A DNA stretch of 64,000 nt from Thermoplasmatota archaeon (GCA_023379385.1 JAMCUS010000024.1:30776-94775); one strand, 5' to 3'; counted from the stretch's first letter, positions 1,448-51,000 are shown. Numbers and translations: made by a program. Notes: generated from the sequence alone by a model not told the origin.

Positions 1448-3367
1448 ATTTAGATCTTTGTTAGTACCTATATCGCCTGAAGGAAGAATGCTCATAATAT
1501 AGTCCATACCAACGCCTGTTTTTTTAGATAAAACTCTTGCAAAATCCTCCTTTTTTATATCTCCTGGATATATCCTTATGTGATGCTCATTTTCATTTTT
1601 ATTTTTTATGTATGAGTAAGGGACGATTTTCAATTTTCTGGAGTTATCAAAATCATCTATAAAAATGGCCATCTCAAGTGGTATTTTGTAAATATAGTTT
1701 TTGTTACCATAGATTATCCAGCTACCTTTAGCTATATATTCTCCTGTTGGTGCTGATTTACTTACCTGTTCTGGTGTTACCCAGAAAGCATCCGCCGATA
1801 CATGTTTCACGGCCCAGGCACGAGAATAGCATATTGAAAACTGGCATGCTTCATAAATGGATTTTTCTGAAATAATTGTGTTATTGCTTTTTACTATAGT
1901 AACCGCAGCACCGTGGATATCTGCATGAATGAATAGATCACGTTCCTTCAGGTAGTGTTTCACAACATAATCATTATCCTTTGCATTTTTACCGGATATA
2001 ACGATATTGCCATCTGAGGTTACGAACCAATGGTACCTTTCATACCATTTTCTTTTTGCATTATCAACATGATCCGTGCTATTGTTGTGAACAATAACCT
2101 TCTTATGTTCCAGTCCAGATAAGTCCTGCTCTATCTTTTTTAACTGTATATTGTATCCCTTTATCATTTCGTATAATCTGTTAACAGACAGTTCAATTTT
2201 TTTGTTCAAATAAAATGGTATTTCATATTCATTAAATTTGAAAATAGCTACATGTTCCTTGGGGATATATTTTATAATCATACCTTTTTCCATTAGTTTA
2301 TTAATTACAGATTGTTCCACCTCTGCAGTGCCAAATTGTTTTAGTACATCCAAGAAAATGTTATAATTATTGTATATCTCTGCTATCCATTTTTTGTGAA
2401 GATCCATTTCATTCCTAACTCTGTTAATTTCGGCATAAAGGTGATCTTTTTGTTTTCTTAGGTTCTCCTCCTCCTCTTTTATTATATTATCATTTTCCCT
2501 ATTTTTTATTAACTTATATCTTTCTATCAAAACATCTGATATTGTGGTATATATTTGCCAGTTATCTGCATTGCTATTATCATTTATTATATCAATCTCT
2601 CCTGTAACTTTATTAAACCATAAGCAATGCAGATCATCAGCAGTTTTTAGTAATGATATCCATAAACGATATATTTCACTATATACAGAAACATCAACCT
2701 CTTTTGCAGGGAAATGGATATCCATAGCTAATTTTTTTAATATATAATTTGCAACCTCCTTTCCCATAGCAACATCTGATGATAAAAATTGAATGATGGT
2801 TCTATCACTCGCCATTCCGGTTTGAAGCATAACTGTTTCATCCATTGATAGAGGATCTGCTCTGACTGGAGGAAATACATATTTTTCGTTGGGAAGAAGT
2901 GTCCTGCTCTTCCAAATCTTTTTTTCAGAACACCACTTTATTATCCAGTTCTGCAGAAGTGATACAGCCCCTGTACGAAAATTTTCTATAACTATTTGGA
3001 ATAACCCCAATTCTGATTCAAATTCAATGATTATTGTTCTATCAAATTTATACTGCCATACATCCTTTATTATGGATCCTGTTAAATATTTTCTAAACAG
3101 ATTGGCCACAGAATCTGGTTCGTTTTTATGAATCCATCTATCTGTTATAAATATAGCGTATTGTTCAATTATGACAAGTTCAAACTCATTAACTCCTTTT
3201 ATACGAATTGTTATGCCACCGGTGTCATGAAATATTTTTAATACCCTTCCGTTAACAGTTTTTTTTTTCAGTTCCATTACAAGAGCATGAATTGTTAGAC
3301 TGCCTATTTCGTTGTAAATTTTATGGTGATTCATTGCTAAATAGTTGCAAATTTTATGGGCATTCAT
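1430..3367 (-). CDS. NFACT-family protein (archaeal Rqc2/NEMF/FbpA homolog, DUF814)
   Basis: N-terminal 'SLTIHALVMELKKKTVNGRVLKIFH' NFACT-N signature, central coiled coil, 'LFIHADIHGAAVTIV' NFACT-R/DUF814 motif. The true start may be the Met at about 3334 (MNHHKIY...). Confidence 0.65.
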   Translation of the reverse strand: MNAHKICNYLAMNHHKIYNEIGSLTIHALVMELKKKTVNGRVLKIFHDTGGITIRIKGVNEFELVIIEQYAIFITDRWIHKNEPDSVANLFRKYLTGSIIKDVWQYKFDRTIIIEFESELGLFQIVIENFRTGAVSLLQNWIIKWCSEKKIWKSRTLLPNEKYVFPPVRADPLSMDETVMLQTGMASDRTIIQFLSSDVAMGKEVANYILKKLAMDIHFPAKEVDVSVYSEIYRLWISLLKTADDLHCLWFNKVTGEIDIINDNSNADNWQIYTTISDVLIERYKLIKNRENDNIIKEEEENLRKQKDHLYAEINRVRNEMDLHKKWIAEIYNNYNIFLDVLKQFGTAEVEQSVINKLMEKGMIIKYIPKEHVAIFKFNEYEIPFYLNKKIELSVNRLYEMIKGYNIQLKKIEQDLSGLEHKKVIVHNNSTDHVDNAKRKWYERYHWFVTSDGNIVISGKNAKDNDYVVKHYLKERDLFIHADIHGAAVTIVKSNNTIISEKSIYEACQFSICYSRAWAVKHVSADAFWVTPEQVSKSAPTGEYIAKGSWIIYGNKNYIYKIPLEMAIFIDDFDNSRKLKIVPYSYIKNKNENEHHIRIYPGDIKKEDFARVLSKKTGVGMDYIMSILPSGDIGTNKDLNLLEFK

Positions 3368-4463
3368 TTACTGAACCTCCATTTAACTTGCTTGATAGCG
3401 AACGGAGACTGTATCCTCCCGCCAATCCTAAGAATTCTAAATTCTTTGCACCTGCATGGTCTGCATTATCTACATGGCCACATCGCAAACATAAAAATTT
3501 AATCCCCTTACGATTTCTCCTGTCTATGTTGCCACATTCAGGGCATCTCTGCGAAGTCTTCCAGGGATCTTTGCGATATACGGATATCCCAAGCTCTTCA
3601 CACATCTGCTCTAACCGAATGCCAACCCTGGCATAATGCCAGAAAGACAGAAGTCTATTTACCCCACGTGAAAACCTTCCACGTTTATTCATCGTGACAT
3701 TTTTTAAATCTTCTATTACTATTGCCTTTACTCCCTCTAAATTCAGCTTTTTTATGTACCTGTTCTCCTCTGTTGTTATATACTGGTGATATGATTTCCT
3801 GTGCTTATCTACCGATAACATTTCTGCTTTCATTTCGCTTCCTAGGTCCTGTCCATCTGATGTAAACAGCATTGAATTTACTCCTCTATCTATTCCTATT
3901 ATTTTCCCTTTTGCACGTTTTTCATGTCTTTCTTTTTCTAATATTAAATCAATAAATAAGCCATTTTCTTTATTCCATCCTAATCTTATTGACTTCCCTA
4001 TCTGCCAACCGTCGTTAAGTAATGCATTTATTTGCTTATTCAGATTGAATAATATTACCACACCGGGAACGCCTGAACCGAATTTCACACACTTATCAAA
4101 AGAACCATCAAAACCATCTATTCTTGTGAATCTGCCATCTAAATTGGCTATTGTTTTATGGAACCTGGGCATTCTTTTATCTTTTTTTTCTAACTGTGAT
4201 GATATGATTTCTTTAGACTGCTTTCCTATGCATTGTGATAACCTGGCTGTAATATTAAATTTAAGGGATGTCCCATCTGTTACCTCCTTAGATAAAAATC
4301 CACTGGAGAAATCCTGTGCAGACCATAGCCTCTCTATTGTATAATTCACTGCCCTGTTATAAGTAACTAAAAACTCCTCAAGCTTATTGACCTTGTTTAT
4401 ATTTACCTCTTTCAGATATATACGGGATGTCCTCTTCATTTTATTATTATTGGTTAGATTCAT
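3354..4463 (-). CDS. tnpB: TnpB (RNA-guided RuvC-like nuclease, IS607/IS605 OrfB family)
   Basis: RuvC-I 'IGIDRGVNSM', RuvC-II 'IVIEDLKNV', C-terminal zinc finger 'CPECG...CLRCGHVDNADHAGAKNL' (RuvC-III). Overlaps the upstream tnpA by 17 nt. Confidence 0.75.
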   Translation of the reverse strand: MNLTNNNKMKRTSRIYLKEVNINKVNKLEEFLVTYNRAVNYTIERLWSAQDFSSGFLSKEVTDGTSLKFNITARLSQCIGKQSKEIISSQLEKKDKRMPRFHKTIANLDGRFTRIDGFDGSFDKCVKFGSGVPGVVILFNLNKQINALLNDGWQIGKSIRLGWNKENGLFIDLILEKERHEKRAKGKIIGIDRGVNSMLFTSDGQDLGSEMKAEMLSVDKHRKSYHQYITTEENRYIKKLNLEGVKAIVIEDLKNVTMNKRGRFSRGVNRLLSFWHYARVGIRLEQMCEELGISVYRKDPWKTSQRCPECGNIDRRNRKGIKFLCLRCGHVDNADHAGAKNLEFLGLAGGYSLRSLSSKLNGGSVNECP

Positions 4464-6069: not shown

Positions 6070-6295
6070 GTTGCAGTGTATATTGTAACCGCATTTAAAA
6101 TTATCCTATTAATTTCTTAAATTTCTTAGCATAAAGGATAATAACCCTTTACATATTATGGAAAATATTGGATAGGATCAAGCAATATTAATTTATAGTG
6201 TTTGACATAATACTGTATACCTATGAATAATCAAATATAAGGATAAATAGTGATGTCATGGACTATAATATGTTTTTAAATGAGAGGTGGTCACA

Positions 6296-8317
6296 ATGTC
6301 CGATAGTAATGATAACAGTTACAACGAAAGAAAGAGACTTTTAGAAGCAATGGATGAAACCAAACTATCAAAGTTTCATTTAAAAACATGGTTGGTATCT
6401 GGAATGGGTTTTTTTACAGATGCCTATGATCTATTCATTATAGGAATGGTTATTGCAATACTTGCAACTCCGTGGCATTTAACAAAATTTCAGGAAGGAT
6501 TGCTGGGGAGCACCTCGCTTATTGCTGCTGTTTTCGGTGCATTGATATTTGGAAAGTTGCTGGATGTATATGGCAGAAAGGCAATCTATGGCATTGAATT
6601 AATAATTCTTATAGCAGGTGCACTTTTGTCTGCATTATCTACCAATATAGATCAGCTAATTTTATGGCGGTTTGTACTTGGTATAGGTATAGGTGGTGAT
6701 TATGCAGCCAGTGCAATAATCATGAGTGAATATGCCAACAGAAAGGATAGAGGCAAACTTGTAGGTATGGTCTTTTCAATGCAAAGTTTAGGTCTTTTAG
6801 TAGGTCCTCTCATAACAATGATCCTATTACAGCTACCTATACCTGTTATGCTGGATTGGAGAATACTGTTGGCTATAGGAACCATACCACCATTACTTGT
6901 TGTTTATTACAGGCGACAGATATCTGAATCTCCCAGATTTTTACTTGCAGTTAAAGGTGATGTTAGCAGTGCAAAAAAAAGCATAAATCAGGTAGTTACA
7001 GTAGAAAATGAACAGAATATCAAAAACAATAATGTAAAAATAAATTCAAGTGGATGGATATTGTTTACCAACAAAAAGCTTCTCTTACTAACGATTGGTG
7101 TATCTTTGAGCTGGTTCCTCATGGACTGGGCATTTTACGGCAATACCATATCTACCTCTTTTATAATGGGCAGTATAGCAAGTAAAGCCTCTCTTTACAC
7201 AATAGCTCTGTATACCTTCGTAATATTTGCTGTTTTTGCTTTTCCAGGTTACTGGTTAGCTACCTCTCTTCTTGATACATTGGGAAGAAAGAGTATACAG
7301 GCAATGGGATTTGCTGTTATGTCTGTATGTTATATAACGATCAGTATTGTTCCTGCTATAATGCATAACATAACCTATTTTATAGGTATATATGGAATAA
7401 GCTATTTTTTTATAGAGTTTGGACCTAACGTTACAACTTTTGTGTATCCTTCAGAGATCTTTCCTTCGCATGTCAGAGGAACAGGTGATGGTATTGCAGC
7501 GTCAAGTGGCAAAATAGGGGCATTTATCGGTACATTACTGTTTCCGATACTCAATATTTTTGTACATATAACAGGGGTATTTGCAATACTTGCATTTTTA
7601 TCTTTAATCGGTGTAGTGGTAACAATTTTAATTCTTCCTGAAACCAAACAAAAATCACTGGAAGAGGCTTCGGGAGAGGATGAACTGACTGTTGTACTAA
7701 CACAATTTTCATCACAGTTATTATCTCTTATAACAAATGCTGAAGATGCTTCAGAAAAATTTGTTAAGCTGTGTAAGGAACCGGACCAGAATACGAAGGC
7801 AAAGTACGTAAAACAGATAAAGGTTATAGAGCATAACTCAGATACAATTGTTCATCAAATACATGTGAATATAAACAGAGGGAAAGTATCTCAATTAACC
7901 AGAATGGATGTTATAGCTATAGCATCCAGTGTTGACGATATAATTGATGAAGTAGAGGCTGTTTCTGCACGATTTGATATTTTTAACTACCCCGTACCTG
8001 ATAAAAGGATAATTGAGTTATCTAACATCATAAAAGAATCTATTAAAGAGATACATTATGGTATTACTGTACTTGATAGACTATTAAAAAAAGATTATAA
8101 GGATCTGGAAAAGGTGTGTATTAGTGTTAATACGCTTGAAAACAGAGCTGATGATATTCTCAGAGAAGGTATTAAAGAATTATTTAATAATGAGAAAAAT
8201 GTATACAGGTTATTGGTCTACAAAGAGATATACGAAAAACTAGAAGAGGTAACCGATAGATGTGAAGACGTAACTGATGTCTTTAAAGATCTGATAGTAA
8301 AATACATTCAGGAGTGA
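6296..8317 (+). CDS. MFS phosphate:H+ symporter (PHS-like) fused to a C-terminal PhoU-like DUF47 domain
   Basis: N-terminal about 470 aa with 12 TM helices and 'GFFTDAYDLFIIGMV', typical of the Pi-transporter MFS family. C-terminal about 200 aa is a helical PhoU/DUF47-like domain. RBS-like GAGAGGTGG lies upstream of the ATG at 6296. Confidence 0.6.
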   Translation: MSDSNDNSYNERKRLLEAMDETKLSKFHLKTWLVSGMGFFTDAYDLFIIGMVIAILATPWHLTKFQEGLLGSTSLIAAVFGALIFGKLLDVYGRKAIYGIELIILIAGALLSALSTNIDQLILWRFVLGIGIGGDYAASAIIMSEYANRKDRGKLVGMVFSMQSLGLLVGPLITMILLQLPIPVMLDWRILLAIGTIPPLLVVYYRRQISESPRFLLAVKGDVSSAKKSINQVVTVENEQNIKNNNVKINSSGWILFTNKKLLLLTIGVSLSWFLMDWAFYGNTISTSFIMGSIASKASLYTIALYTFVIFAVFAFPGYWLATSLLDTLGRKSIQAMGFAVMSVCYITISIVPAIMHNITYFIGIYGISYFFIEFGPNVTTFVYPSEIFPSHVRGTGDGIAASSGKIGAFIGTLLFPILNIFVHITGVFAILAFLSLIGVVVTILILPETKQKSLEEASGEDELTVVLTQFSSQLLSLITNAEDASEKFVKLCKEPDQNTKAKYVKQIKVIEHNSDTIVHQIHVNINRGKVSQLTRMDVIAIASSVDDIIDEVEAVSARFDIFNYPVPDKRIIELSNIIKESIKEIHYGITVLDRLLKKDYKDLEKVCISVNTLENRADDILREGIKELFNNEKNVYRLLVYKEIYEKLEEVTDRCEDVTDVFKDLIVKYIQE

Positions 8318-8469: not shown

Positions 8470-9846
8470 ATTTAAAGATTGATAGGGGTGTGGGGGAAGC
8501 TATAAATCTCCTCCCTTCAGGATGGAGATACATGGACTTCCCCCATCTTCCTTATCAACATCTTTATATATATATGTGCATATAAATGCCCTGTTATGAT
8601 TATATCAATACAGATTATATCCCAATAAAAAACTTACTAAAATTTTGAATGACCAAATAGAACTATGCAGGCGATTATATAACGCTGGTCTAACAGAACG
8701 TAAAGAAGCTTATAGATTATCCCAGACTTCTCTTACCTATAATTTACAACAAAATGAATTGCCTGCTGTTAAATCAGACAATCCTGAATATAACGATATT
8801 CATTCACAGGTTTTATGCGATGTTCTTAACCGATTAGATAAGGCTTATAAAGGATTCTTTGAACGAATTAAAAATAAAGGTAAAAAAGGTAAGAAAGCGG
8901 GTTTCCCACGTTATAAATCCAGAGGCAAATATAACTCCATTACCTATCCTCAACTCGGTTTTAAATTAATTCATAAAAACAACGGTTCTAAAAAAGGTAT
9001 ATTACAGTTAAGCAAGATAGGATATATTAAAATCATTGTAAGCAGAGATATAACATACGGTAAAATCAAGACGTGTACTGTTAAAAGAGATAAAGCAGGC
9101 GATTGGCTCGCTACCTTTACTGTGGAATTACCCGATACAGTTAAGAAGCCATTAGAACAGATTAAAGAACAGGATATTATTGGTGTTGATGTCGGCATAA
9201 ACAAATTAGCCGTGTTAACTGATGGTATAGAAGTTAAAGAGATAGATAATCCAAAGTTAATAGCGAAGTATGAAAAAGGTATTAAAACACTACAGAAACA
9301 ACTATCCAGAACAAAGAAACGCTCTTATAACAGAGCCAAGATAAGAAAGAAAGTCGCTAAAAAACAGCGTAAGTTAGCGAATGCACGAAAAGATAATCTG
9401 CATAAAGCATCTAATCAAATAGTGGAGAGTGAAAATATAATAGTCTTTGAGGATTTAAATGTTCAGGGAATGGTTCAGAATCACAATCTAGCAAAGAGTA
9501 TATCAGACGGTTCCTGGGGCAAACTGATAGACATGTGTGTTTACAAAGCCGAAAATGCTGGTAAATACATAGAGTTTGTAAATCCAAGAAACACAAGTCA
9601 GTTATGCTCACGTTGCGGAGCAGTTGTAAAGAAGGACTTATCCGTGAGAATCCATAGTTGTAATAACTGTGGATTAGTAATGGATCGGGATCTTAACGCT
9701 GCTCTGAACATAAGAGAGAAATACATACGGAACGTGTGGAACTCTGTAAAAATGCCTGCTGATGCTCTGACCTCTACTCATCTAAATGAGCAAGCTGGAG
9801 CGATGAAGCAGGAATTTCCGATGCTTTAGCTGAGGGGTAGTTCACA
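8470..9846 (+). mobile_element. IS200/IS605-family tnpB-only element (no tnpA), with a palindromic left end. The right end lies 97 nt upstream of tRNA-Ala.
   Basis: Ends were defined by comparison with the deleted copies at 50441..51000 and 45737..45945. The shared LE begins at ATTTAAAGATTG and the RE ends at ...GGGTAGTTCACA (9846). Confidence 0.6.
8600..9829 (+). CDS. tnpB: TnpB (IS605 OrfB family). There is no in-frame ATG and a 5-nt deletion just after the ancestral start is likely, so the gene may be a pseudogene or use a non-AUG start.
   Basis: 'YQYRLYPNKKLTKILNDQIELCRRLYNAGL' canonical TnpB N-terminus, RuvC-I 'IGVDVGINKLAV', RuvC-II 'IVFEDLNVQGM', Zn finger 'CSRCG...CNNCGLVMDRDLNAALNI'. 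The remnant copy at about 45.93 kb preserves ATGATAAGAACATATCAATACAGG in frame. Confidence 0.7.
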   Translation, partial: LYQYRLYPNKKLTKILNDQIELCRRLYNAGLTERKEAYRLSQTSLTYNLQQNELPAVKSDNPEYNDIHSQVLCDVLNRLDKAYKGFFERIKNKGKKGKKAGFPRYKSRGKYNSITYPQLGFKLIHKNNGSKKGILQLSKIGYIKIIVSRDITYGKIKTCTVKRDKAGDWLATFTVELPDTVKKPLEQIKEQDIIGVDVGINKLAVLTDGIEVKEIDNPKLIAKYEKGIKTLQKQLSRTKKRSYNRAKIRKKVAKKQRKLANARKDNLHKASNQIVESENIIVFEDLNVQGMVQNHNLAKSISDGSWGKLIDMCVYKAENAGKYIEFVNPRNTSQLCSRCGAVVKKDLSVRIHSCNNCGLVMDRDLNAALNIREKYIRNVWNSVKMPADALTSTHLNEQAGAMKQEFPML

Positions 9847-9943
9847 TAAATTATAACACTCTATATTTAAAAATTTTTGATAAGACAAAGTTATGTAAAA
9901 ATATATATATTTAGATAAGATGATATGTGTAGCACTGAAATAT

Positions 9944-10028
9944 GGGCCGGTAGATCAGCTGGAAGATCGCTATCTTGGCAAAAGATCCAAAATGGTAGAG
10001 GTCGTGAGTTCAAATCTCGCCCGGTCCA
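9944..10028 (+). tRNA. tRNA-Ala (anticodon GGC) with a putative 12-nt intron after position 37
   Basis: Acceptor GGGCCGG/CCGGTCC with the G3:U70 Ala identity pair, discriminator A73, D-arm GATC/GATC, T-arm GTGAG-TTCAAAT-CTCGC. Anticodon stem CTATC...GGTAG encloses TTGGCA[aaagatccaaaa]T. Confidence 0.7.
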
Positions 10029-10235
10029 TTGCAACTATGATTCGTGGTGTGATTGCTATAAATTTATTTGATTTACCCAAACTTTCTCTAAATTTTAATC
10101 CATCATCGGTATAAGTATTTCTGTCATAGCTTGATACGGCTTGATACGTAAACTATATAATATAGGTCTACATTAATATCCCTATAATTAGTATAGATGT
10201 CCGTATTGAATAATCTGATTATAGAGGGTTAATCA

Positions 10236-11201
10236 ATGTATAGAAAAGGTAAACGATTTATTAAAAATAGAAAGGCAGTAGCGTCAGTAGTTGGCACCAT
10301 GATGGCTATGATGGTATTTCTAAGTATCTTTACACTTATAACAACGCAATACATTCCTGTGTGGATGCAATCTAATGAGATAACTTTTATAGACAATTCA
10401 ATAGGTGGTATGATTTCACTAGATCATGCCCTTACCATGGAGGCAATATCCAATACAACTCAGATAACAGAAAGAACTCCTTTTAGGATGGAATCTGCAG
10501 ATGTACCAGTACTGTCACCTCCAACAGCAGGTGTGTTGACTTTTAATCCTCTTAACGGGTTATTTTACGTGAGCTTTCAGGTACCAACATCCAGTACATC
10601 TTCCGGGCCTAGTGGTTTTACTACGTTTAATTTAGGAACCTATAACCCAGGTTCTCCATCAACAAATTATGGAGGTGGATACGGTGGAAGTGTAGATTAT
10701 TATGTTCCTGCAAGATATGTGCAACCTGAAAGGATCGTGTATGAAGGCAGTGCAATTATTGTATCAGAGAGCTCAGCAATGGTGGTAAAGGTATCTCCAG
10801 AATTCAAAATAATGACATATACTGTATCAGGTACCACATACTATGAACTTTACCTAGGAATATATGGACTTTATGGACAACCGGCAACAGGAAGTGGTCC
10901 TGGTATTCAGAGTATTTATACAACTTTACTTGGTGAACAGCAATATAAGGAAAATTATGGAACAAATCTCGAGTCTACCACAATAAATATACTTACACCC
11001 TATCCAACTGCATGGATTAACTATTTAAATGGATATCTTTCTATACATGATCCTGGATCATACAGTGTAAGTAATCCACCAAGTGCTGGCCCACCTGGTA
11101 GCAATGAATTTCTTGTAACTGTAACTATTACAGGGTTATCAGCAGTGAATATTGTAGTTGCAACTTATGGATTTAGTATGTATAGTGGTTCATCTCTATA
11201 A
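10236..11201 (+). CDS. archaeal type IV pilin-like protein (class III signal peptide), Ser/Thr/Gly-rich and probably glycosylated
   Basis: N-terminus 'MYRKGKRFIKNRKAVASVVGTMMAMMVFLSIF' (basic residues then hydrophobic helix), several N-x-S/T sequons, RBS AGAGGGTT upstream. Confidence 0.55.
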   Translation: MYRKGKRFIKNRKAVASVVGTMMAMMVFLSIFTLITTQYIPVWMQSNEITFIDNSIGGMISLDHALTMEAISNTTQITERTPFRMESADVPVLSPPTAGVLTFNPLNGLFYVSFQVPTSSTSSGPSGFTTFNLGTYNPGSPSTNYGGGYGGSVDYYVPARYVQPERIVYEGSAIIVSESSAMVVKVSPEFKIMTYTVSGTTYYELYLGIYGLYGQPATGSGPGIQSIYTTLLGEQQYKENYGTNLESTTINILTPYPTAWINYLNGYLSIHDPGSYSVSNPPSAGPPGSNEFLVTVTITGLSAVNIVVATYGFSMYSGSSL

Positions 11202-11211
11202 TGGTGATAAA

Positions 11212-12837
11212 ATGAGTGTAGATATGAGAGGTAGAAACGGCGTTAAGATCAGATTGCCAAAAAAGGAAATTGGTGAGTTTGTTAATTCTTTAAAAAAAAG
11301 CACGGGGTCCAATCCAATAACAGAGATACCTAAAATTACGGATCCTGCTATTGAAATACTTGAATTTAAACCAATTAGACCACCCTATTCGTATGCAAGA
11401 ATTTTATATAATAACAGATCTAAAGATTTTCTTTATGAAGCGATAGAACCTCATCTTAATGATGAGGAGCAGGAGTTCTATAATTTTATTGAAGAATCTC
11501 TTAAAAAAACATTAACGTACGATGTAGACCATCTAAAATATCAGGATAAAGAAGAATATCTCAAAGGGAATGTTGAATCCTTTTTGCAGAGTAGAGCTAC
11601 AAAAATCACACCAATACTGCGTGAAAAACTTATATACTATGTTTTAAGGGATTATATTGGATATGGTCCAATTGATGTGCTCATACGTGATGAAGAGGTG
11701 GAAGATATCTCCTGTGACGGTGTAGGTATCAATGTATATATTTTTCATCAAAAATATGAATCTATTAGATCAAATGTTATTATAAACTCAGACGAGAAGA
11801 TAAATTCATTCGTAATCTCTTTAAGTCAACGATCTGGAAAGCAGGCTTCCGTAGCAAATCCGATTGTAGATGGGACTACCACCGAAGGGCATAGATTGCA
11901 GGCTACCTATGCTAGAGAGATATCTACAAGGGGTGGTAGTTTTACGATACGACGTTTTAAGGAAAGGCCGTTTACTCCTGTTGATATTATCATCAGCAAA
12001 ACTGCCAGTGTTGATATGATGGTATACATGTGGGTGGCAGCTGAAAATGGTGAATCTCTTATAATCTGTGGAGGCCCCGGTGCTGGTAAAACATCTACAT
12101 TAAATGCTGTAGCTCTTTTCATACCACCTACCTCAAAGATAGTATCCATGGAAGATACCAGAGAGATCAATCTACCTCATGAAAACTGGATCCCTGGAGC
12201 TACACGATCTGGAACCGGTGAAAGGGGTATAGACGGCAGGGCACCAGGTGAGATTGATATGTTTGATCTTGTAAGAGCTGCCTTAAGACAGAGACCAAAT
12301 TTCATTATTGTTGGAGAGGTTAGAGGTAAGGAAACCTATACAATGTTTCAGGCTATGGCTACAGGACATACAACCTATTCAACAATGCATGCAGATTCCG
12401 TTAAATCAATGGTAAACAGGCTCGAGAATCCTCCTATCAATACACCAAGAATTCTATTATCAGCTTTAAACAATGTTATTATACAGCATCAGGTCAGGGT
12501 AGGTATGAATGTTGTAAGACGTATTAAACAGATTGTGGAAATTGTTGGATTTGAACCTGAAACAAATGAACTTATAACAAATACTGTTTTTGAATGGGAT
12601 TCCAACAATGATACTTTCATATACAGAGGGCACTCCTTCCTGTACGACAAAGTTATGGAAATGAAGAATTTAACACACGAAGAAATGGAAGAAGAGGTAA
12701 ATAGACGTGTTGAAGTTTTAAATTATCTGGTTAGTAGAAAGGTAGTAGATTTTAAAAAGTTTGCCCAGATCATCATTTCATATTACAAAGAACCACATGA
12801 AACAATTGAAAAAATAAGAGGTGGAAAATTTGCCTGA
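11212..12837 (+). CDS. FlaI/TadA/VirB11-family secretion ATPase (paralog 1)
   Basis: Walker A 'GGPGAGKTSTLNA', Walker B/Asp box 'IIVGEVRGKE', His box 'TMHAD'. N-terminal domain conserved with paralog 2. Confidence 0.8.
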   Translation: MSVDMRGRNGVKIRLPKKEIGEFVNSLKKSTGSNPITEIPKITDPAIEILEFKPIRPPYSYARILYNNRSKDFLYEAIEPHLNDEEQEFYNFIEESLKKTLTYDVDHLKYQDKEEYLKGNVESFLQSRATKITPILREKLIYYVLRDYIGYGPIDVLIRDEEVEDISCDGVGINVYIFHQKYESIRSNVIINSDEKINSFVISLSQRSGKQASVANPIVDGTTTEGHRLQATYAREISTRGGSFTIRRFKERPFTPVDIIISKTASVDMMVYMWVAAENGESLIICGGPGAGKTSTLNAVALFIPPTSKIVSMEDTREINLPHENWIPGATRSGTGERGIDGRAPGEIDMFDLVRAALRQRPNFIIVGEVRGKETYTMFQAMATGHTTYSTMHADSVKSMVNRLENPPINTPRILLSALNNVIIQHQVRVGMNVVRRIKQIVEIVGFEPETNELITNTVFEWDSNNDTFIYRGHSFLYDKVMEMKNLTHEEMEEEVNRRVEVLNYLVSRKVVDFKKFAQIIISYYKEPHETIEKIRGGKFA

Positions 12838-13834
12838 AGTTGAAAATCCTTTTGATAAAATATTGAAGAATAGAAAAAAGTCGTTGCAACTTGGTACGTC
12901 TGAAGGAGGAACCCTGGGTTCACATCACACAAAGGTGCCGAAGGGATATGCACCTCAATTTGTGAATATGACGAATTTACAAAAAACTGCATGGCAAAAT
13001 ATGCATAAATTCGTTGAAGGAATGACTGTATCACAGGAACTGGAAGACGATCTGCTGAAGGCACATATAAATCTCAGAGGTGAGGAATACCTTTCTTACG
13101 TTCTTTTTATTACCCTTGTATCGGCACTTGTGTCGCTGGTAGCAGGTATTGTTGTCGGTGTCCTCATGTCTTTTGCGTATCCACTATATAAATCAATTCT
13201 AGTATCTGTACTTATAATATTTCTCATTCCGTTTATAGTATATTTTATGAATATGAAATTACCATCTATGAAGGCATCTGCTAGAGCAAGGGACATTGAC
13301 AAAAGACTTGCATCTGCAATGGGTTTTATAGCCGCAATGGGTTCTGCGGATGTGAATATTGATGTTATATTTAAAGAGTTATCTAAACAAAAATTATACG
13401 GTGAAATCAGAAATGAAGCGTTATGGATAACCAGAGATACAGAGATTCTTGGTTATGATATCCTTACCGCCATGAAAAACGCTGTGGGTAGAACCCCTTC
13501 CAGAAAATTTCAAGATTTTCTACAGGGAGCTATAACAACAGTTACATCCGGAGGGCAATTAAAGCCCTATTTTATGATGAAAACAACTGAATATGAGAGA
13601 GATGCAAAATTGGATATGGCAAAAATGCTGGAAACCTTTGGTATGCTTGCTGAATCGTTCGTAACTGTCGTTGTTGCATTTCCACTCTTTCTAGTCGTTA
13701 TACTTGCTATAATGGCAATTGTTGGTGGAAACGGTGTATACATGATGAATATTCTGTGGATAATCGTGCTTGTTATGATTCCTGCGTCGCAGTTTATGTT
13801 TATATTTATCATGGGTAATATGACTAAAGCTTAA
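12821..13834 (+). CDS. FlaJ/TadC-like polytopic membrane protein (single T2SS-F domain)
   Basis: T2SSF-like cytoplasmic domain flanked by TM helices. GTG start overlapping the ATPase stop. Confidence 0.6.
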   Translation: MENLPEVENPFDKILKNRKKSLQLGTSEGGTLGSHHTKVPKGYAPQFVNMTNLQKTAWQNMHKFVEGMTVSQELEDDLLKAHINLRGEEYLSYVLFITLVSALVSLVAGIVVGVLMSFAYPLYKSILVSVLIIFLIPFIVYFMNMKLPSMKASARARDIDKRLASAMGFIAAMGSADVNIDVIFKELSKQKLYGEIRNEALWITRDTEILGYDILTAMKNAVGRTPSRKFQDFLQGAITTVTSGGQLKPYFMMKTTEYERDAKLDMAKMLETFGMLAESFVTVVVAFPLFLVVILAIMAIVGGNGVYMMNILWIIVLVMIPASQFMFIFIMGNMTKA

Positions 13835-13844
13835 GGTGTTAAAA

Positions 13845-14795
13845 ATGGTAAGAAAAGTAGCTGTTAAAGAAGAGATTCCGATGAAGACCATTCTGTGGAT
13901 TGTATCAATTACAATACTCATGATCTTTATTATACTAGCAGTTTTGAATATGGTACCCAGTGGTACTGGTAGCGGTACACTTGTAAATACCGCAATATTA
14001 TCAGGAGAAAGTGCTCCCAATAGAGCTATAGATATGACCTCCTTTGGTCTTATCATTTTTTTCATGATTATGGGGCTATATCTGTCCCGTGAACAATCGG
14101 AAGTTGCAGATATTGAAAAGAGATTGCCAGATTTTCTTCATGATGTAGCGGAAGCCGGAAGATTTGGAATGAATCTAGCAGATGCCATTTCGGTTGCGTC
14201 TACCGGTAAATATGGTTCTTTAACTGCTGAAATAAAAAAGATGTCTGCACAGATACGATGGGGTGTATCCGTAACTGATGTTCTTCATCAATTTTATGAA
14301 AGGAGACCCACACCGCTTGTTAACAGGATAACCTCTATAATTATAAAAGCGAATGAAGCTGGTGGTAACATTGCAGATATACTATCACTTGTATCACATA
14401 CTACTAAGGAGGTTCAGGAAATGGATTCACAGAGAAAGATACAGATGAGTACCTATCTTGCAGTTATATACATATCCTATTTTGTATTTATTATCACAAT
14501 CATCATATTGAGTTCCACCTTCTTACCAGAGATGGTGAAAGCTGGTCAGGGAATTGCCAAATCAAGTGCTGCAGCATTAGGTGGATCTTCACCGATAACA
14601 ATATCATATCAACTTATTCCCGAGATTGCAATTATTCTATTCGTTGCTGTTATGGTTCACGCAATAGGTGATGGTCTAATGGCCGGTGTACTTGATACAG
14701 GTCAGGTCGTATCTGGTATGAAACACGCAGGTATAATGTTGCTGATAGGGTGGATCATGATGAGGTTTCTTGTACCGCAGTTCAATAATGTTTAA
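13845..14795 (+). CDS. FlaJ/TadB-like polytopic membrane protein (single T2SS-F domain)
   Basis: Second T2SSF-type domain with TM helices. ATG at 13845 preceded by AAGGTG. Confidence 0.6.
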   Translation: MVRKVAVKEEIPMKTILWIVSITILMIFIILAVLNMVPSGTGSGTLVNTAILSGESAPNRAIDMTSFGLIIFFMIMGLYLSREQSEVADIEKRLPDFLHDVAEAGRFGMNLADAISVASTGKYGSLTAEIKKMSAQIRWGVSVTDVLHQFYERRPTPLVNRITSIIIKANEAGGNIADILSLVSHTTKEVQEMDSQRKIQMSTYLAVIYISYFVFIITIIILSSTFLPEMVKAGQGIAKSSAAALGGSSPITISYQLIPEIAIILFVAVMVHAIGDGLMAGVLDTGQVVSGMKHAGIMLLIGWIMMRFLVPQFNNV

Positions 14796-14809
14796 AGAGG
14801 TGTAAATTT

Positions 14810-16465
14810 ATGGATTTAAGTCTCATGAAAGGAGGATTTACGTTTAAAAAAAGTGCTAGACCTGTACGATTACCCAAAGGTTCAAAAAATGTATCTGAAG
14901 CAACTACAGATATAACGCCAATTAAGGCAGTAACAGAAAGTAATTTTAGTGAAATAGAACTGGATCCTGTTGAATTTCCTTATTCATATATCAGAGTATT
15001 GTACGATAATGTGTTAAATGAATACATATATGAATGTATTGAGCCACCCATGAAAGATGAAGAATGGGATTTTGTTACAGCAATTGAGGAGGAATTGGTT
15101 AAAAAGGTTCAATACATAACCATAGATGACAAAGAGAGTAAAGTGAAATATCTTATGGAACTCGCAAATGAAGTTATGCGTTCAATGGATATACACTTCA
15201 GTCCCCTGGTAAAGAGACGGCTTGAGTATTATATAAGAAGGGATTTTATAGGATATGGTATTATCCAGATTCCAATGATAGATACACAGGTAGAGGATAT
15301 CTCTTGCGATGGAGTCGGAATTCCCATCTATATTTATCATCGTAAATATGGCTCTATAAGATCCACACTAAAATTCACCAACGAAAAGGATCTTGATTAC
15401 TTTGTTGTATGGCTTGCACAAAGATGTGGTAAGCATATCTCTGTTTCATCACCTATGTTAGATGCAACGGTTCCGGATGGCTCAAGACTGCAGGCTACAT
15501 TGGGTAAATACGTTACAAAAAAAGGCTCATCTTTTACTATAAGAAGATTCAGAGATAATCCATTCACACCCATTGATATGATCAAGTTTAAAACAGCGTC
15601 TCTGGAAATGATGGCCTATTTGTGGCTTGCCATTGAAAGTGGACAATCCATGATGGTATGTGGAGGTACTGCAAGTGGTAAAACAACCACTATAAATGCT
15701 GTCCTGTTATTTATACCACCTCAGATGAAGATTGTATCTATTGAAGATACCAGAGAACTTAATCTTCCACACGAAAATTGGGTGCCGCTTCTTACCAGAA
15801 GTGGATTTGGTGCAAAAAATCCAATAACAGGTAAGTCTCCAGGTGAAGTGGATATGTTTGATCTTCTTACCACATCACTTAGACAGAGACCCCAGTACCT
15901 GATGGTGGGAGAAGTTAGAGGTGCAGAAGCTTTTATAGTATTTCAGGCCATGGCAACTGGTAAAACAAGCTATACCACTTTCCACGCAGAATCTGTTTCT
16001 GCAATGGTACATAGAATGGAGAATCCACCAATCAATCTACCCAGAGCTTTAATGACTTCACTCAATCTTGTATCACTTCAGGCACAGGTTAAAGTGGGTA
16101 ACAAAATGACGAGACGTGTTAAAGGGCTTACTGAGATTGTAGGTATTGACCCGGAAACAAATGAACTTATAACAAATACTGTATACTCGTGGAATCCTGC
16201 TGATGATTCATTTACCTACAGCGGTCATAGTTACATATATGAAAAGATAGCCTCATCCAAAGCATGGAGCATGAAGGATATGGAGAAGGAGGTTAAGAGG
16301 AGAGCCGATGTACTTAACTATCTGGTACTAATGGAGTCAAAGGGTACAAGAGAACATCCATTTACTTTCAAGGATGTAGCCAAAACAGTAGCGTGGTATT
16401 ATAAAGAACCACTGGTAGTTGCAGAAAATGCTAAAAAAATGCTTTCTGAGGAAGGTATAGGCTGA
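14810..16465 (+). CDS. FlaI/TadA/VirB11-family secretion ATPase (paralog 2)
   Basis: Walker A 'GGTASGKTTTINA', 'LMVGEVRGAE', 'TFHAE'. Collinear similarity to paralog 1. Confidence 0.8.
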   Translation: MDLSLMKGGFTFKKSARPVRLPKGSKNVSEATTDITPIKAVTESNFSEIELDPVEFPYSYIRVLYDNVLNEYIYECIEPPMKDEEWDFVTAIEEELVKKVQYITIDDKESKVKYLMELANEVMRSMDIHFSPLVKRRLEYYIRRDFIGYGIIQIPMIDTQVEDISCDGVGIPIYIYHRKYGSIRSTLKFTNEKDLDYFVVWLAQRCGKHISVSSPMLDATVPDGSRLQATLGKYVTKKGSSFTIRRFRDNPFTPIDMIKFKTASLEMMAYLWLAIESGQSMMVCGGTASGKTTTINAVLLFIPPQMKIVSIEDTRELNLPHENWVPLLTRSGFGAKNPITGKSPGEVDMFDLLTTSLRQRPQYLMVGEVRGAEAFIVFQAMATGKTSYTTFHAESVSAMVHRMENPPINLPRALMTSLNLVSLQAQVKVGNKMTRRVKGLTEIVGIDPETNELITNTVYSWNPADDSFTYSGHSYIYEKIASSKAWSMKDMEKEVKRRADVLNYLVLMESKGTREHPFTFKDVAKTVAWYYKEPLVVAENAKKMLSEEGIG

Positions 16466-20612: not shown

Positions 20613-21170
20613 TTAATCCTTCTTTCCATTTTTTATCATTGATGTTATATATGCAATTCCACCGGCAAAAACACCGAAAGCGCCTATAGCCATAAAGATA
20701 CCAATTGGTATCATTAATGAAGATAGTATGTTTACGTGTACCCATAACGCCGTCTCACCAAGGCCACCATCATATTTAGGTAACATCGCTGCGCCACCAA
20801 AGAAACCGCCGTACATCATCAATATTGACGCACCTATAGTGCCTATACTCATGAATATAATGTGTATCCATGCAAAAAATGCGGAGATGCCTTTTACACT
20901 TTTATTGAGAATCACTTCAAGATACCAGTAAAACAAACCACTTACAGCCGTACCTAGAACTCCTACAAGCATTAACCCAACAAATCCAACCGTTAGCCAC
21001 GTACCTGCACTGCCTGAAGCAACTACCATTGCAGCAGAGGGTTTATAAAACATACTCTGCATAAGAAATGTAGCCATAGAAAAGAATGCTACAGCTCCTA
21101 TAATTATAGCTACATATATAAACCGATTGGCCCATATGCTCTCTTTTATCACACTTTTTATTTCATCCAT
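20613..21170 (-). CDS. hypothetical integral membrane protein (about 5 TM)
   Basis: Hydrophobic, Gly-rich TM segments. No recognised motif. Confidence 0.4.
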   Translation of the reverse strand: MDEIKSVIKESIWANRFIYVAIIIGAVAFFSMATFLMQSMFYKPSAAMVVASGSAGTWLTVGFVGLMLVGVLGTAVSGLFYWYLEVILNKSVKGISAFFAWIHIIFMSIGTIGASILMMYGGFFGGAAMLPKYDGGLGETALWVHVNILSSLMIPIGIFMAIGAFGVFAGGIAYITSMIKNGKKD

Positions 21171-21533: not shown

Positions 21534-23390
21534 ATGAACAATAAAAGTTTGAAAGAAAAAATTTGGCTCTTTTTTCATTCGCCTAGGCAGTTATTTTACT
21601 TTACAGTAATATGGGGACTTATATTCAGTGTATTAAGTCCATTGTTTAATCAATTTTCGCCTATTTATGGAGGTACAAATGAGTTTCAACGTATTATGTA
21701 TCTTCATGTATTGACAATTGTACTTGTAGTAGCGTTATCCTATATCATTGTAGATGTCTACAGACCCTGTCTCGAAATGTCCGAAGGTGTAAGAACTTTT
21801 GAATTTGATTTTATTATGTATGGTGGTTTTATAGCTATTGTTATTAATAGCATCTTTGGAATGATTGATTCTGTAGAGAACAGTATTCCTATGTGGATGC
21901 AGATTGTTGCATTTCTGTTCCTTGATGAGATTGCTATTGCACTTATAATAGCGCTGCCAATTCACATGTACAGAACCAAAGGACTGGAAAATGCAGATCT
22001 AACCTTCTGGTTATTGTGGGTGTCAATAGGGTCTGCATTTACAGCCGCCATGATCGGTCACATTGGTGGTTTTATAATGGCATTTGGAGGCAGTTTCATG
22101 ACTCCTTATATCCATAGCATAGGCCTGAATTCTGCAACCTTTGAAGCCAATGCTATTACAAGCCATTCACACGAGATGATCGTAGCCATAATGGCAGGTA
22201 TAGTAGCACTGTTCGCTACGAAATATGGCTATAATGAATTGAAAGGATTAAAAAAGTTTATAGCAAAATTGGGACTGGAGGTGGCTTTATTCGGTGTTGT
22301 AGCCATGACTGCAGTATATGTTGTAGGTGGATTGACGAACTATGTTATTCCTACGATGTTTACATTTGGTCCAGGAGCTGCTAATGGTTTGGCACAGGAT
22401 GACCTTCTCACTGGAATTGTGGGAATAGGTGCCTTTTTGGTATTGATAGGCATGCTCTGGTCACCTGTAAAAAGTGCTGCTAAGAATATAGAAAAGGGTA
22501 CAGATTACCTGATGAACGATCCAATAGGCATGGCTATCCTTCTTTCATGGGTGTTTGCACTGGTAATGATACCTGTGCTGGGGTACAGTATTGAACTTCA
22601 GGAGAATTATTTCGGTATGCTTGGATTTATAACCAATGCCCCTGGAGCTATCAGTGATATCAACTTTATGAGATTCCACCAGATGTTTGGATTTTTCCTT
22701 ATGCCTGCAATGTCCACCCTGCTCATGGGTCTAGACTATTTTTCCTTTATTCCAAAAAACAGGGAATTGATCGGATATTCATTGATATTCGGTTCCCTGG
22801 TAATGTTCATAGGTGGCGTTGGTTTAATATTCTTTAATACAGCTAGCTGGAGTGTGTACTGGTATATAACAATACTGGGCATGATCCTATTTGCTTTTGG
22901 GGTAGGTACTGCTATATATACTGGGATGTCTGTATTTCAGGAAGAAAATATTGATAAGGTAAAAAAGGAGGTTAAGAAAGATAGTAGAACCTACTTTAAT
23001 AACGGAAAAAGGGTTCCTGTCATAGGAGGTGCTGTTGTGGTAATTCTTTTGCTCATATCCGCAGGAACAATATTCTATGTGCATTCCCAGTCAGTTAACT
23101 ATTCGTATATAGAAGGCATTAATGTCGCCGGTACTGCAGCGAATAATATTACTGTAAACATGACTTTTCCGTATGCATATAAGACCGGTACTTCTGTTGA
23201 TATTTCGATGATTGCTACTGCTAACTTCACTATGGAAAATGTATCAACAAATATTACGTCGTTCAGTGTTGTTTCTACCGATCCAAGTTTAGCATGTACA
23301 CTTACCTGCAATGAGTCAATGACCATGGTTCTATCTACGCCTGCAGGCTATTTTGATGGAACATTAACTATATTTGTAAATAGCAAATAG
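21534..23390 (+). CDS. hypothetical polytopic membrane protein (about 14 TM) with a C-terminal extracytoplasmic Ser/Thr-rich domain full of N-glycosylation sequons
   Basis: Multiple TM helices. C-terminal domain has NIT/NMT/NFT/NVS/NIT/NES sequons. Lies 9 nt upstream of ctaB. Confidence 0.45.
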   Translation: MNNKSLKEKIWLFFHSPRQLFYFTVIWGLIFSVLSPLFNQFSPIYGGTNEFQRIMYLHVLTIVLVVALSYIIVDVYRPCLEMSEGVRTFEFDFIMYGGFIAIVINSIFGMIDSVENSIPMWMQIVAFLFLDEIAIALIIALPIHMYRTKGLENADLTFWLLWVSIGSAFTAAMIGHIGGFIMAFGGSFMTPYIHSIGLNSATFEANAITSHSHEMIVAIMAGIVALFATKYGYNELKGLKKFIAKLGLEVALFGVVAMTAVYVVGGLTNYVIPTMFTFGPGAANGLAQDDLLTGIVGIGAFLVLIGMLWSPVKSAAKNIEKGTDYLMNDPIGMAILLSWVFALVMIPVLGYSIELQENYFGMLGFITNAPGAISDINFMRFHQMFGFFLMPAMSTLLMGLDYFSFIPKNRELIGYSLIFGSLVMFIGGVGLIFFNTASWSVYWYITILGMILFAFGVGTAIYTGMSVFQEENIDKVKKEVKKDSRTYFNNGKRVPVIGGAVVVILLLISAGTIFYVHSQSVNYSYIEGINVAGTAANNITVNMTFPYAYKTGTSVDISMIATANFTMENVSTNITSFSVVSTDPSLACTLTCNESMTMVLSTPAGYFDGTLTIFVNSK

Positions 23391-45736: not shown

Positions 45737-45945
45737 CTAGATTTACAAACTCCACGGATTTACCAGCATTTTCGGCGCTGTAAATACATTGATCTATCGG
45801 TTTGCTTTCCAAGAGGCGTAGTCTGGTATACTCTCTGCAAGATTGTGATTTTAAGCCATGTTATTAGCATTTTTAATATTTTAACAGTTTTTTTATCAGG
45901 ATATAACCTGTATTGATATGTTCTTATCATAATAATACAGTGAAT
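45737..45945 (-). mobile_element. truncated remnant of the IS200/IS605 tnpB element (5' end of tnpB with ATG plus an internal fragment)
   Basis: The reverse complement matches element 1 at 8596-8670 and 9525-9600 ('...AAAATGCTGGTAAATCCGTGGAGTTTGTAAATC'). Confidence 0.55.
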
Positions 45946-50440: not shown

Positions 50441-51000
50441 TGTGAACTACACCATGCTAAAGCATCGGAGCTTCCAGCTTCATCGTTCCAGCTTGCTCAT
50501 TTAGATGAGTAGAGGTCAGAACATCCACAGGCATTTTTACAGAGTTCCACACATGCCGTATGAATGCTATATGAGATCTAACCTCTCTCTTATGTTCAGA
50601 GCAGCGTTAAGATCCCGATCCATTACTAATCCACAGTTATTACAACTATGGATTCTCACGGATAAGTCCTTCTTTACAACTGCTCCGCAACGTGAGCATA
50701 ACTGACTTGTATCTCTTGGATTTACAAACTCTATGTATTTACCAGCATTTTAGGATTTGTGAGTACACATGTCTATCAGTTTGCTCTAGGAGGAGTCTGA
50801 TATACTGCCTGCACAGTTCCAGCTGATAGTTTAGAATTTTAGTAGTCTTTTTATTTGGATACAGTCTGTATTGATATGTGTCTATTATAGATAGACATAT
50901 ATATATGTGTAGTTATAGTTATGTTAAGGAAGATGGGGGAAGTCCATGTATCTCCATGCTAAGGCGTCGGAGTATTATAGCTTCCCCCATTCCCCTAACA
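50441..51000 (-). mobile_element. internally deleted (about 820-bp deletion) derivative of the IS200/IS605 tnpB element that retains both ends (MITE-like)
   Basis: The reverse complement of 50925-51000 equals the LE palindrome of element 1 (GGGGGAAGCTATAA...ATACATGGACTTCCCCCATCTTCC). The reverse complement of 50441-50770 equals the tnpB 3' end plus RE. Deletion junction is at about 50770. Confidence 0.65.

Follow-up and report, generated by a model that had tools for sequence, protein, structure and literature searches.

Two motor ATPases and a split platform in a five-gene operon for type IV pilus assembly, conserved across Thermoplasmata

Positions 10236-16465 of a 64,000-nt stretch of DNA from a Thermoplasmatota archaeon (GCA_023379385.1, JAMCUS010000024.1:30776-94775; the whole stretch is called the window here) were confirmed in this study as an intact archaeal type IV pilus assembly operon of five genes, with two motor ATPases and a platform divided between two membrane proteins. 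The arrangement itself is already published. An ATPase, TadC, TadC, ATPase cluster was reported in Cuniculiplasma divulgatum (Golyshina et al. 2016, Sci Rep, PMC5155288), and its products were later named CdiPE1, CdiPFa, CdiPFb and CdiPE2 and assigned to the C. divulgatum pilus solved by cryo-electron microscopy (ISME J 2025, PMC12448462). For Aciduliprofundum (A. boonei / MAR08-339), 'two distinct ATPases encoded in the same locus' were noted (Makarova, Koonin & Albers 2016, PMC4858521). The duplicated motor, which an earlier note on this DNA had called unusual, is so among characterised archaeal systems, but it had been described in these two genera before. The present locus is a distant member of known machinery, and the additions made here are modest: the conservation of the module across the class, an apparently ancient duplication of the ATPases with both copies intact, the assignment of the first gene to DUF7289 together with a predicted pilin-like model, and the contrast between five-gene and four-gene forms.

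The operon consists of five co-directional open reading frames (ORFs) on the + strand, in the order pilin-like gene, ATPase 1, platform N half, platform C half and ATPase 2 (Table 1). Depending on the start codon chosen, neighbouring ORFs overlap by up to 44 nt or are separated by gaps of 1-14 nt. The start of ATPase 1 is uncertain (TTG at 11158, 11167 as given by the gene callers, or ATG at 11212), and that of the C half could be GTG at 13836 or ATG at 13845. The order, the common direction and the near-abutting junctions had all been claimed in the earlier note, and the ORFs with their Pfam T2SSE and T2SSF domains bear them out. The identical locus was found on independent ENA and NCBI contigs, including the Thermoplasmata metagenome-assembled genome (MAG) GCA_027378975.1. 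A Pfam scan of all window ORFs of at least 120 aa gave no Peptidase_A24 (prepilin peptidase), no archaellin and no arlF/G/H, arlC/D/E or arlX, in agreement with the claim that archaellum accessory genes and a prepilin peptidase are missing; nor did it give Flp pilin, TadV, TadZ or secretin genes. Among the window ORFs no class-III signal peptide was found outside gene 1, and no small ORF with such a signal, as for a CdiPB-like major pilin, lies within the 64 kb. A scan for sigma-70 promoters and terminators (23 sites vs 31 expected) is uninformative for an archaeon.

The platform is split in the manner of TadB/TadC, as had been noted earlier. Each platform protein has exactly one T2SSF domain in Pfam, and in NCBIfam the N half aligns to positions 12-243 and the C half to positions 295-543 of the 555-position FlaJ model; because of these model positions, the two proteins jointly cover one FlaJ/PilC. 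Their reading frames differ, and a stop codon separates the two. All of the 120 best homologues of the N half are 330-358 aa long with a single T2SSF domain, and the C half is a separate ORF in 72 species. Among the NCBIfam models, UpsF and BasF matched both halves with scores far below their cut-offs, the bacterial ComGB gave a weak match to the C half only, and TadB and TadC matched neither half. With archaeal FlaJ, UpsF and BasF matches and no match to the TadB or TadC models, the fission of the platform may be independent of that in bacterial Tad systems.

Both ATPases are full-length and intact. They are 49% identical over 527 aa and carry the Walker A sequences GGPGAGKT (ATPase 1) and GGTASGKT (ATPase 2), just as the earlier note had read them. 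In an alignment of 72 ATPase-1 and 63 ATPase-2 sequences, those of the window included, the Walker A motif (GxxxxGKT), the Asp box (EDTRE), the Walker B motif (VGEVRG), whose catalytic Glu is replaced by Ala in the FlaI structure 4IHQ, the His box and the conserved arginines were invariant or nearly so in both clades. Sequences of the ATPase-1 clade had a mean identity of 67% to one another and those of the ATPase-2 clade one of 69%, compared with 46% across the two clades; ATPase 2 is the better conserved paralogue, and the two are similarly constrained. The clades are fixed for different residues at 30 positions, where FlaI has the ATPase-2 state 13 times vs the ATPase-1 state four times. 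The clearest difference, in an N-domain motif next to a conserved Arg, is EGHRVQAT in ATPase 1 vs PDGSRLQAT in ATPase 2 and in the GspE of Archaeoglobus fulgidus (afGspE); PDGSR is common to ATPase 2, afGspE, FlaI and CpaF. Judged from these residues, ATPase 1 seems to be the more derived of the two. The P-loop of ATPase 1 in the window (residues ~301-308, GGPGAGKT) is a minority variant, about 90% of the ATPase-1 orthologues reading GGTASGKT. The Walker A sequence of the Cuniculiplasma-type E1 is GVPGVGKT, a P-loop of the minority type that is common to these two distant lineages.

The best match of both ATPases in the PDB was afGspE (2OAP), with E values of 7e-121 for ATPase 1 and 9e-120 for ATPase 2 (both at 404-408 bits). 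For both of them the ranking was 2OAP (~405 bits), FlaI of Sulfolobus acidocaldarius (~270 bits) and CpaF (125-130 bits), and the matches to PilT structures were weak (E 1e-4 to 1e-9). The alignments to 2OAP start at residue 10 and residue 53, so the full assembly-type N-terminal region is kept in both. In the neighbor-joining (NJ) analysis (Kimura distances, 482 columns, 100 bootstraps, 150 diverse representatives), the background sequences were mostly long unnamed proteins, retrieved from 50%-identity representatives with ATPase 1 as query. ATPase-2 sequences excluded ATPase-1 sequences in 100/100 bootstraps and ATPase-1 sequences excluded ATPase-2 sequences in 80/100, while the sisterhood of the two clades was not resolved. 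The distance from afGspE to either ATPase was ~1.06 substitutions/site vs 0.78 between ATPase 1 and ATPase 2.

Bootstrap support in the NJ tree (31/100 and 24/100) was too low to place the long branches of Cuniculiplasma, for which BLAST rankings were used instead. CdiPFa and CdiPFb were rebuilt from the machine-read supplement of PMC12448462; CdiPFa was 33% identical to the N half (E 6e-40) and CdiPFb 34% identical to the C half (E 9e-36). An acid-mine-drainage contig (L089), which is 96% identical to the supplement sequence, served as the Cuniculiplasma-type comparator and carries E1 (525 aa), Fa (324 aa), Fb (284 aa) and E2 (529 aa). Its Fa matched the N half with E 9e-46 and its Fb the C half with E 2e-36. 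Identities to the Cuniculiplasma core were 33-35% for the N half, 33-34% for the C half, 40% for E1 and ATPase 1, and 41% for E2 and ATPase 2. The E1 of this contig scored 400 bits against ATPase 1 vs 360 against ATPase 2, and its E2 409 bits against ATPase 2 vs 350 against ATPase 1; the clade medians likewise were 422 (ATPase 1) vs 389 bits for E1 and 418 (ATPase 2) vs 359 bits for E2. Since E1 and E2 each match their own clade best and the gene order agrees, the duplication of the ATPases appears to be ancient and to predate the split of the Thermoplasmatales from the other orders, as judged from score rankings and gene order rather than from a tree.

The module is conserved across the class Thermoplasmata. 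Each GTDB species was represented by one genome in the scan; 206 genomes had a relative of the N half, and the best 80 loci were kept. These span Thermoplasmata, Methanomassiliicoccales, Methanomethylophilaceae and Sysuiplasma. The order pilin-like gene, ATPase, N half, C half, ATPase was present in nearly every locus with enough flanking sequence, i.e., in about 70 other species. The ATPase at position 2 was always closest to ATPase 1 (typically 57-79%) and that at position 5 always closest to ATPase 2 (typically 58-79%). The genes flanking the module vary between the loci, which indicates that the five genes travel as a unit. With this conservation, and with both ATPases catalytically intact, the second ATPase of Cuniculiplasma, called 'enigmatic' by its authors (PMC12448462), is an ancient selected feature and not a quirk of one species.

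Gene 1 had been called a pilin in the earlier note. That it is pilin-like and has a class-III signal is supported here, but it is probably not the filament subunit; it is rather a large predicted minor pilin of the arCOG02911/DUF7289 type. Its N-terminus, NRKA↓VASVVGTMMAMMVF (the arrow marks the cut), fits the archaeal class-III signal pattern with a predicted cut after A14, and a short charged leader with A at -1 is followed by a hydrophobic stretch of at least 20 aa (NRKA↓VASVVGTMMAMMVFLSIF), as in the N-termini of pilins. A search with the single sequence returned gene 1 alone, and a profile of orthologues was built from the related loci. The motif G↓VA(S/A)T(V/I)GTIMALMVFL..FTNQYVPVWM is kept in 57 species, with G at -1 in at least 90% of the orthologues; beyond this motif, the orthologues are 21-41% identical to the protein of the window. 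The Pfam family DUF7289 was matched by 28 of 36 orthologues, and the annotations in the sources are 'hypothetical protein' throughout. In a confident AlphaFold2 model from a 66-sequence alignment (predicted local distance difference test, pLDDT, 86.7; predicted template modelling score, pTM, 0.80), residues 6-72 form a helix and a beta-rich head comes after it; the predicted shape is the lollipop of a type IV pilin, but with a head of far greater size. The arCOG02911 predicted pilin of Aciduliprofundum has the same position and size as gene 1, and the two are equated by position and size, not by sequence. It was proposed that arCOG02911 proteins are minor pilins of the euryarchaeal clade 2 systems (Makarova et al., PMC4858521), and because of this proposal gene 1 is most likely to be a minor, priming or tip pilin rather than the filament subunit.

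With slightly better than even confidence, the locus is read here as the operon that assembles an adhesive type IV pilus of archaea, one of the euryarchaeal 'clade 2', CdiP kind, together with the following mechanism. The product of gene 1 would be cut after A14 by a prepilin peptidase encoded elsewhere, and both this peptidase and a small major pilin would be encoded outside the window. The two single-domain membrane proteins would pair, as TadB and TadC do, into one platform equivalent to FlaJ/PilC; such pairing has been proposed for CdiPFa/CdiPFb as well. Both ATPases would be catalytically active and act on this one platform, preferably as a single motor, either mixed or docking in alternation, in which ATPase 1 would contact the N half and ATPase 2 the C half. 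In that case a single symmetry-breaking event would lie behind both the split of the platform and the duplication of the motor. Such a coupled motor is favored because every locus with enough flank has the split platform together with the duplicated motor, in the same mirrored order, because both paralogues are equally constrained, because the distance matrices of the two ATPases are the most tightly coupled and that of ATPase 2 is coupled to the C half, and because in AlphaFold-Multimer modelling of the bacterial Tad motor each TadB/TadC heterodimer spans two neighboring ATPase subunits (PMC11300603). The last of these provides a structural template for one ATPase paralogue per platform half. 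In the mirror-tree comparison, the distance matrices of all five proteins correlated with r 0.85-0.97 (ATPase 1-ATPase 2, raw r 0.97), and the largest partial correlations were ATPase 1-ATPase 2 (0.67), ATPase 2-C half (0.39) and pilin-N half (0.39), with 0.06 for ATPase 2-N half; these correlations are exploratory, as pairwise distances are non-independent and no significance can be attached to them.

Several points weigh against this interpretation. The partial correlations of ATPase 1 with the two platform halves are 0.20 and 0.19, i.e., without preference, and the high partial correlation between the two ATPases could be caused by nothing more than their being the same kind of protein. The mixed E1/E2 hexamer is purely our own inference. 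In the RNA-seq data of C. divulgatum, Fa:Fb was 2:1, which does not fit a simple 1:1 heterodimer (PMC12448462). As for gene 1, it did not match the archaeal Pfam family Pilin_N, structure comparison gave no convincing relative of its head domain, and the Cuniculiplasma-type contig has no DUF7289 gene within 13 kb, so that gene 1 is not needed beside the core in every lineage. A stricter version of the coupling is put forward as a speculation of which we are doubtful: platform fission and ATPase duplication would be mechanistically coupled in an obligate mixed motor, e.g., an alternating E1(3)E2(3) ring, with each Fa/Fb heterodimer bridging an E1-E2 pair, Fa on E1 and Fb on E2, and the DUF7289 pilin would prime the fiber. 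If this is true, the module would contain the first heteromeric motor of a type IV filament, and one conserved across the class Thermoplasmata. The DUF7289 pilin could also be the unexplained 'hook' seen at the tips of Cuniculiplasma pili (PMC12448462), an idea weakened by the same lack of the gene near the Cuniculiplasma-type locus. How a single ATPase of the secretion family can power type IV filaments in both directions, assembly and disassembly, is generally unsettled, as is its engagement with a pseudo-symmetric platform. In the present module, the platform is naturally separated into its two halves and the motor into two paralogues, and the module is therefore well suited, as a natural system, to the question of which platform half contacts which motor subunit.

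Two other ways of using a second ATPase have to be weighed against the coupled motor. A division of labor like that of PilB and PilT, in which one ATPase polymerises and the other is an independently evolved retraction motor of Thermoplasmata, was raised by the authors of PMC12448462, and the two separate, ancient, catalytically intact clades with their 30 clade-fixed differences, including EGHR vs PDGSR, would agree with it. However, no twitching was seen in live microscopy of C. divulgatum (PMC12448462), both ATPases keep the assembly-type N-terminal region, and neither belongs to the PilT/PilU family (46 and 36 bits vs a cut-off of 319 in the pilT_fam model TIGR01420). Moreover, Sulfolobus and Caulobacter retract their pili with a single ATPase (PMC11178785, PMC6920026), and a dedicated retraction motor is considered unlikely. 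The two ATPases might instead be alternative motors on one platform, chosen by condition or by pilin set, e.g., the large pilin of the operon vs small major pilins encoded at a distance, and the pilins of Cuniculiplasma are indeed encoded in trans (PMC12448462). Against such a switch stand the tight co-directional operon that holds both genes in ~70 species, the strict co-inheritance of the two ATPases (the raw r given above), which argues against independent use, and RNA-seq without growth-phase differences across the machinery operon of C. divulgatum (PMC12448462). Alternative motors are thus regarded as decidedly unlikely.

The remaining explanations concern the nature of the locus. It might be the remnant of an archaellum, or a secretion or DNA-transfer machine built from type IV filament parts, since the best NCBIfam matches are named FlaI and FlaJ and no major pilin gene lies in the window. 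The scores, however, are far under the archaellum cut-offs: FlaI, the top model for both ATPases, gave 391 and 405 bits vs 550, and the FlaJ models gave 42-69 bits for the platform halves vs 400-550. With these equivalog cut-offs missed and with no archaellin or ArlF/G/H/C/D/E/X (flaF/G/H included) in the window, an archaellum identity was rejected. The homologous machinery of C. divulgatum is assigned to an imaged and solved pilus (PMC12448462), afGspE ranks ahead of FlaI as the closest structure, and a function other than a pilus seems very improbable; the pilus-like, non-archaellum character claimed previously is upheld in this respect. The earlier note had also named what would overturn it, i.e., one FlaJ gene split by a frameshift and a pseudogenic second ATPase. 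The membrane ORFs do abut in different frames and jointly cover one FlaJ. This reading was nevertheless rejected, as the comparative data refute it: the split recurs in the 120/120 best homologues, in 72 species loci and in the complete genomes of Aciduliprofundum and Cuniculiplasma, and ATPase 2, with every catalytic motif in place, is the better conserved paralogue. The probability left to such an artefact is negligible.

The neighborhood of the module differs from one locus to another. Antisense ORFs in GC-rich genomes interfered with a search for a sixth conserved neighbor, which gave only clade-restricted ones. In about 29 related loci, that of the window not among them, a KaiC-type ATPase (PF06745) with HHH and DUF7504 domains lies on the same strand at most 4 kb upstream. 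KaiC-family ATPases are candidate regulators of type IV pili (Makarova et al., PMC4858521); this neighbor could equally be clade-restricted synteny. Downstream, a surface protein of ~1500 aa with zinc-ribbon and CARDB domains adjoins the second ATPase in convergent orientation in a soil Thermoplasmata MAG and in Aciduliprofundum, is absent from the window, and may be a recurrent neighbor of the module.

In the window, the operon is flanked upstream by an IS200/IS605-type TnpB gene and a tRNA-Cys gene, and downstream by MarC and succinate dehydrogenase genes. A 64-aa ORF at 9920-10114 overlaps the tRNA gene and is probably spurious. On the Cuniculiplasma-type contig, a tRNA-like sequence is apparent by eye just upstream of the first ATPase, where no tRNA search was run. 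Inverted repeats of ~335 nt (91-95% complementary; 9497-9830 and 50456-50806) bracket a 40.6-kb segment with the pilus operon; of the two arms, one corresponds to the 3' end of the upstream TnpB gene and the other to an isolated fragment. The genes at 51-56 kb of the window, which encode an FAD/NAD-binding oxidoreductase, an ABC ATPase, an ABC-2 permease and a 604-aa protein, lie directly upstream of the pilin-like gene in opposite orientation on the contigs L001 and L002, whereas L003 is arranged like the window. These two arrangements indicate that the population carries both orientations of an inversion flanked by insertion sequence (IS) fragments. Further partial copies of the IS end occur at 45740-45931, 50719-50889 and 9519-9584 (77-83% identity), in direct and inverted orientation, which suggests several decayed IS200/IS605 remnants in the region. 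No TnpA was seen adjacent to either TnpB ORF of the window. Of the other window genes in Table 1, the permease fused to PhoU_div combines its domains in an uncommon way and may be a transporter related to phosphate whose regulator is built in.

Table 1. Genes of the pilus operon and other features of the window, with recurrent neighbors of the module at related loci
Feature	Coordinates	Strand	Length	Remarks
Gene 1, pilin-like	10236-11201	+	321 aa	class-III signal peptide; Pfam DUF7289
ATPase 1	11158-12837	+	559 aa	CdiPE1 counterpart; T2SSE E 7e-31
Platform N half	12821-13834	+	337 aa	CdiPFa counterpart; T2SSF E 4e-11
Platform C half	13836-14795	+	319 aa	CdiPFb counterpart; T2SSF E 2e-17
ATPase 2	14810-16465	+	551 aa	CdiPE2 counterpart; T2SSE E 6e-31
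TnpB / Cas12f-like	3354-4463	-	369 aa	OrfB_IS605, TNB domain
MFS/sugar-transporter-type permease	6287-8317		676 aa	C-terminal PhoU_div (DUF47) fusion
TnpB / Cas12f-like	8645-9829	+	394 aa	OrfB_IS605, TNB domain
tRNA-Cys(GCA)	9943-10029		87 nt	between IS end and pilus operon
ORF without Pfam match	20613-21170	-	185 aa	kept on sister contigs; looks multi-pass membrane
ORF without Pfam match	21534-23390	+	618 aa	kept on sister contigs
TrmB-like helix-turn-helix (HTH) + DUF835 + AAA/STAND-like NTPase + TPR protein	28620-31553		977 aa	
TPR protein	38031-42431		1466 aa	nearly all TPR repeats
KaiC-type protein, locus L005	1930-4338 of L005	same as module	802 aa	PF06745 + HHH + DUF7504
Zinc-ribbon/CARDB protein, locus L005	12584-17038 of L005	-		soil Thermoplasmata MAG
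Zinc-ribbon/CARDB protein, A. boonei gene 10	9568..14079	-		

Among the known systems, the archaellum (ArlI/FlaI, ArlJ/FlaJ, ArlB and C-H) has a homologous ATPase and platform, but a single ATPase and an unsplit ArlJ, unlike the operon of the window. The Aap and Ups pili and the bindosome of Sulfolobus (AapE/AapF, UpsE/UpsF, BasE/BasF) are alike in their core of ATPase and platform and differ in having a single ATPase and a platform that is usually encoded by one gene; in some Sulfolobales and Desulfurococcales, the platform is encoded in one or two genes (Makarova et al., PMC4858521). The BasE model of NCBIfam matches both ATPases of the window far below its cut-off. The GspE of A. fulgidus (2OAP/2OAQ) has all motifs in common with both ATPases and aligns nearly end to end with them, but it is a single ATPase. 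In the bacterial Tad/Flp system (TadA/CpaF, TadB/CpaG, TadC/CpaH), the platform also consists of two single-T2SSF proteins and the ATPase belongs to the same superfamily, whereas one bifunctional ATPase is found there in place of two. The label 'Tad', as applied to this locus in the earlier note, is apt for the two-protein form of the platform and fails as a family assignment, the TadA model (TIGR03819) giving 138-139 bits for the two ATPases vs a cut-off of 373. The locus is not a bacterial Tad system, and the resemblance is one of form, an analogy only.

The closest published relatives are those of Cuniculiplasma and Aciduliprofundum. Genes 5-9 of the A. boonei locus, assigned to clade 2, are an arCOG02911 predicted pilin, a FlaI-type ATPase, TadC, TadC and a FlaI-type ATPase, with lengths of ~300, 545, 332, 290 and 547 aa (supplementary table of PMC4858521). 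This is the five-gene order of the window with similar sizes, the equivalence being one of order, size and family labels; the Aciduliprofundum locus has been catalogued and never studied experimentally. The CdiP operon and that of the window share the core of ATPase, N half, C half and ATPase, with each homologue in the matching position, and both are without a major pilin, AapX and a peptidase; the major pilin of C. divulgatum, a protein of 135 aa, is encoded ~500 kb away from its machinery (PMC12448462). They differ in the fifth, upstream DUF7289 gene of the window, which has no like near the core of the Cuniculiplasma-type contig. The module has two variants, one of five genes in the window and in Aciduliprofundum and one of four genes in Cuniculiplasma.

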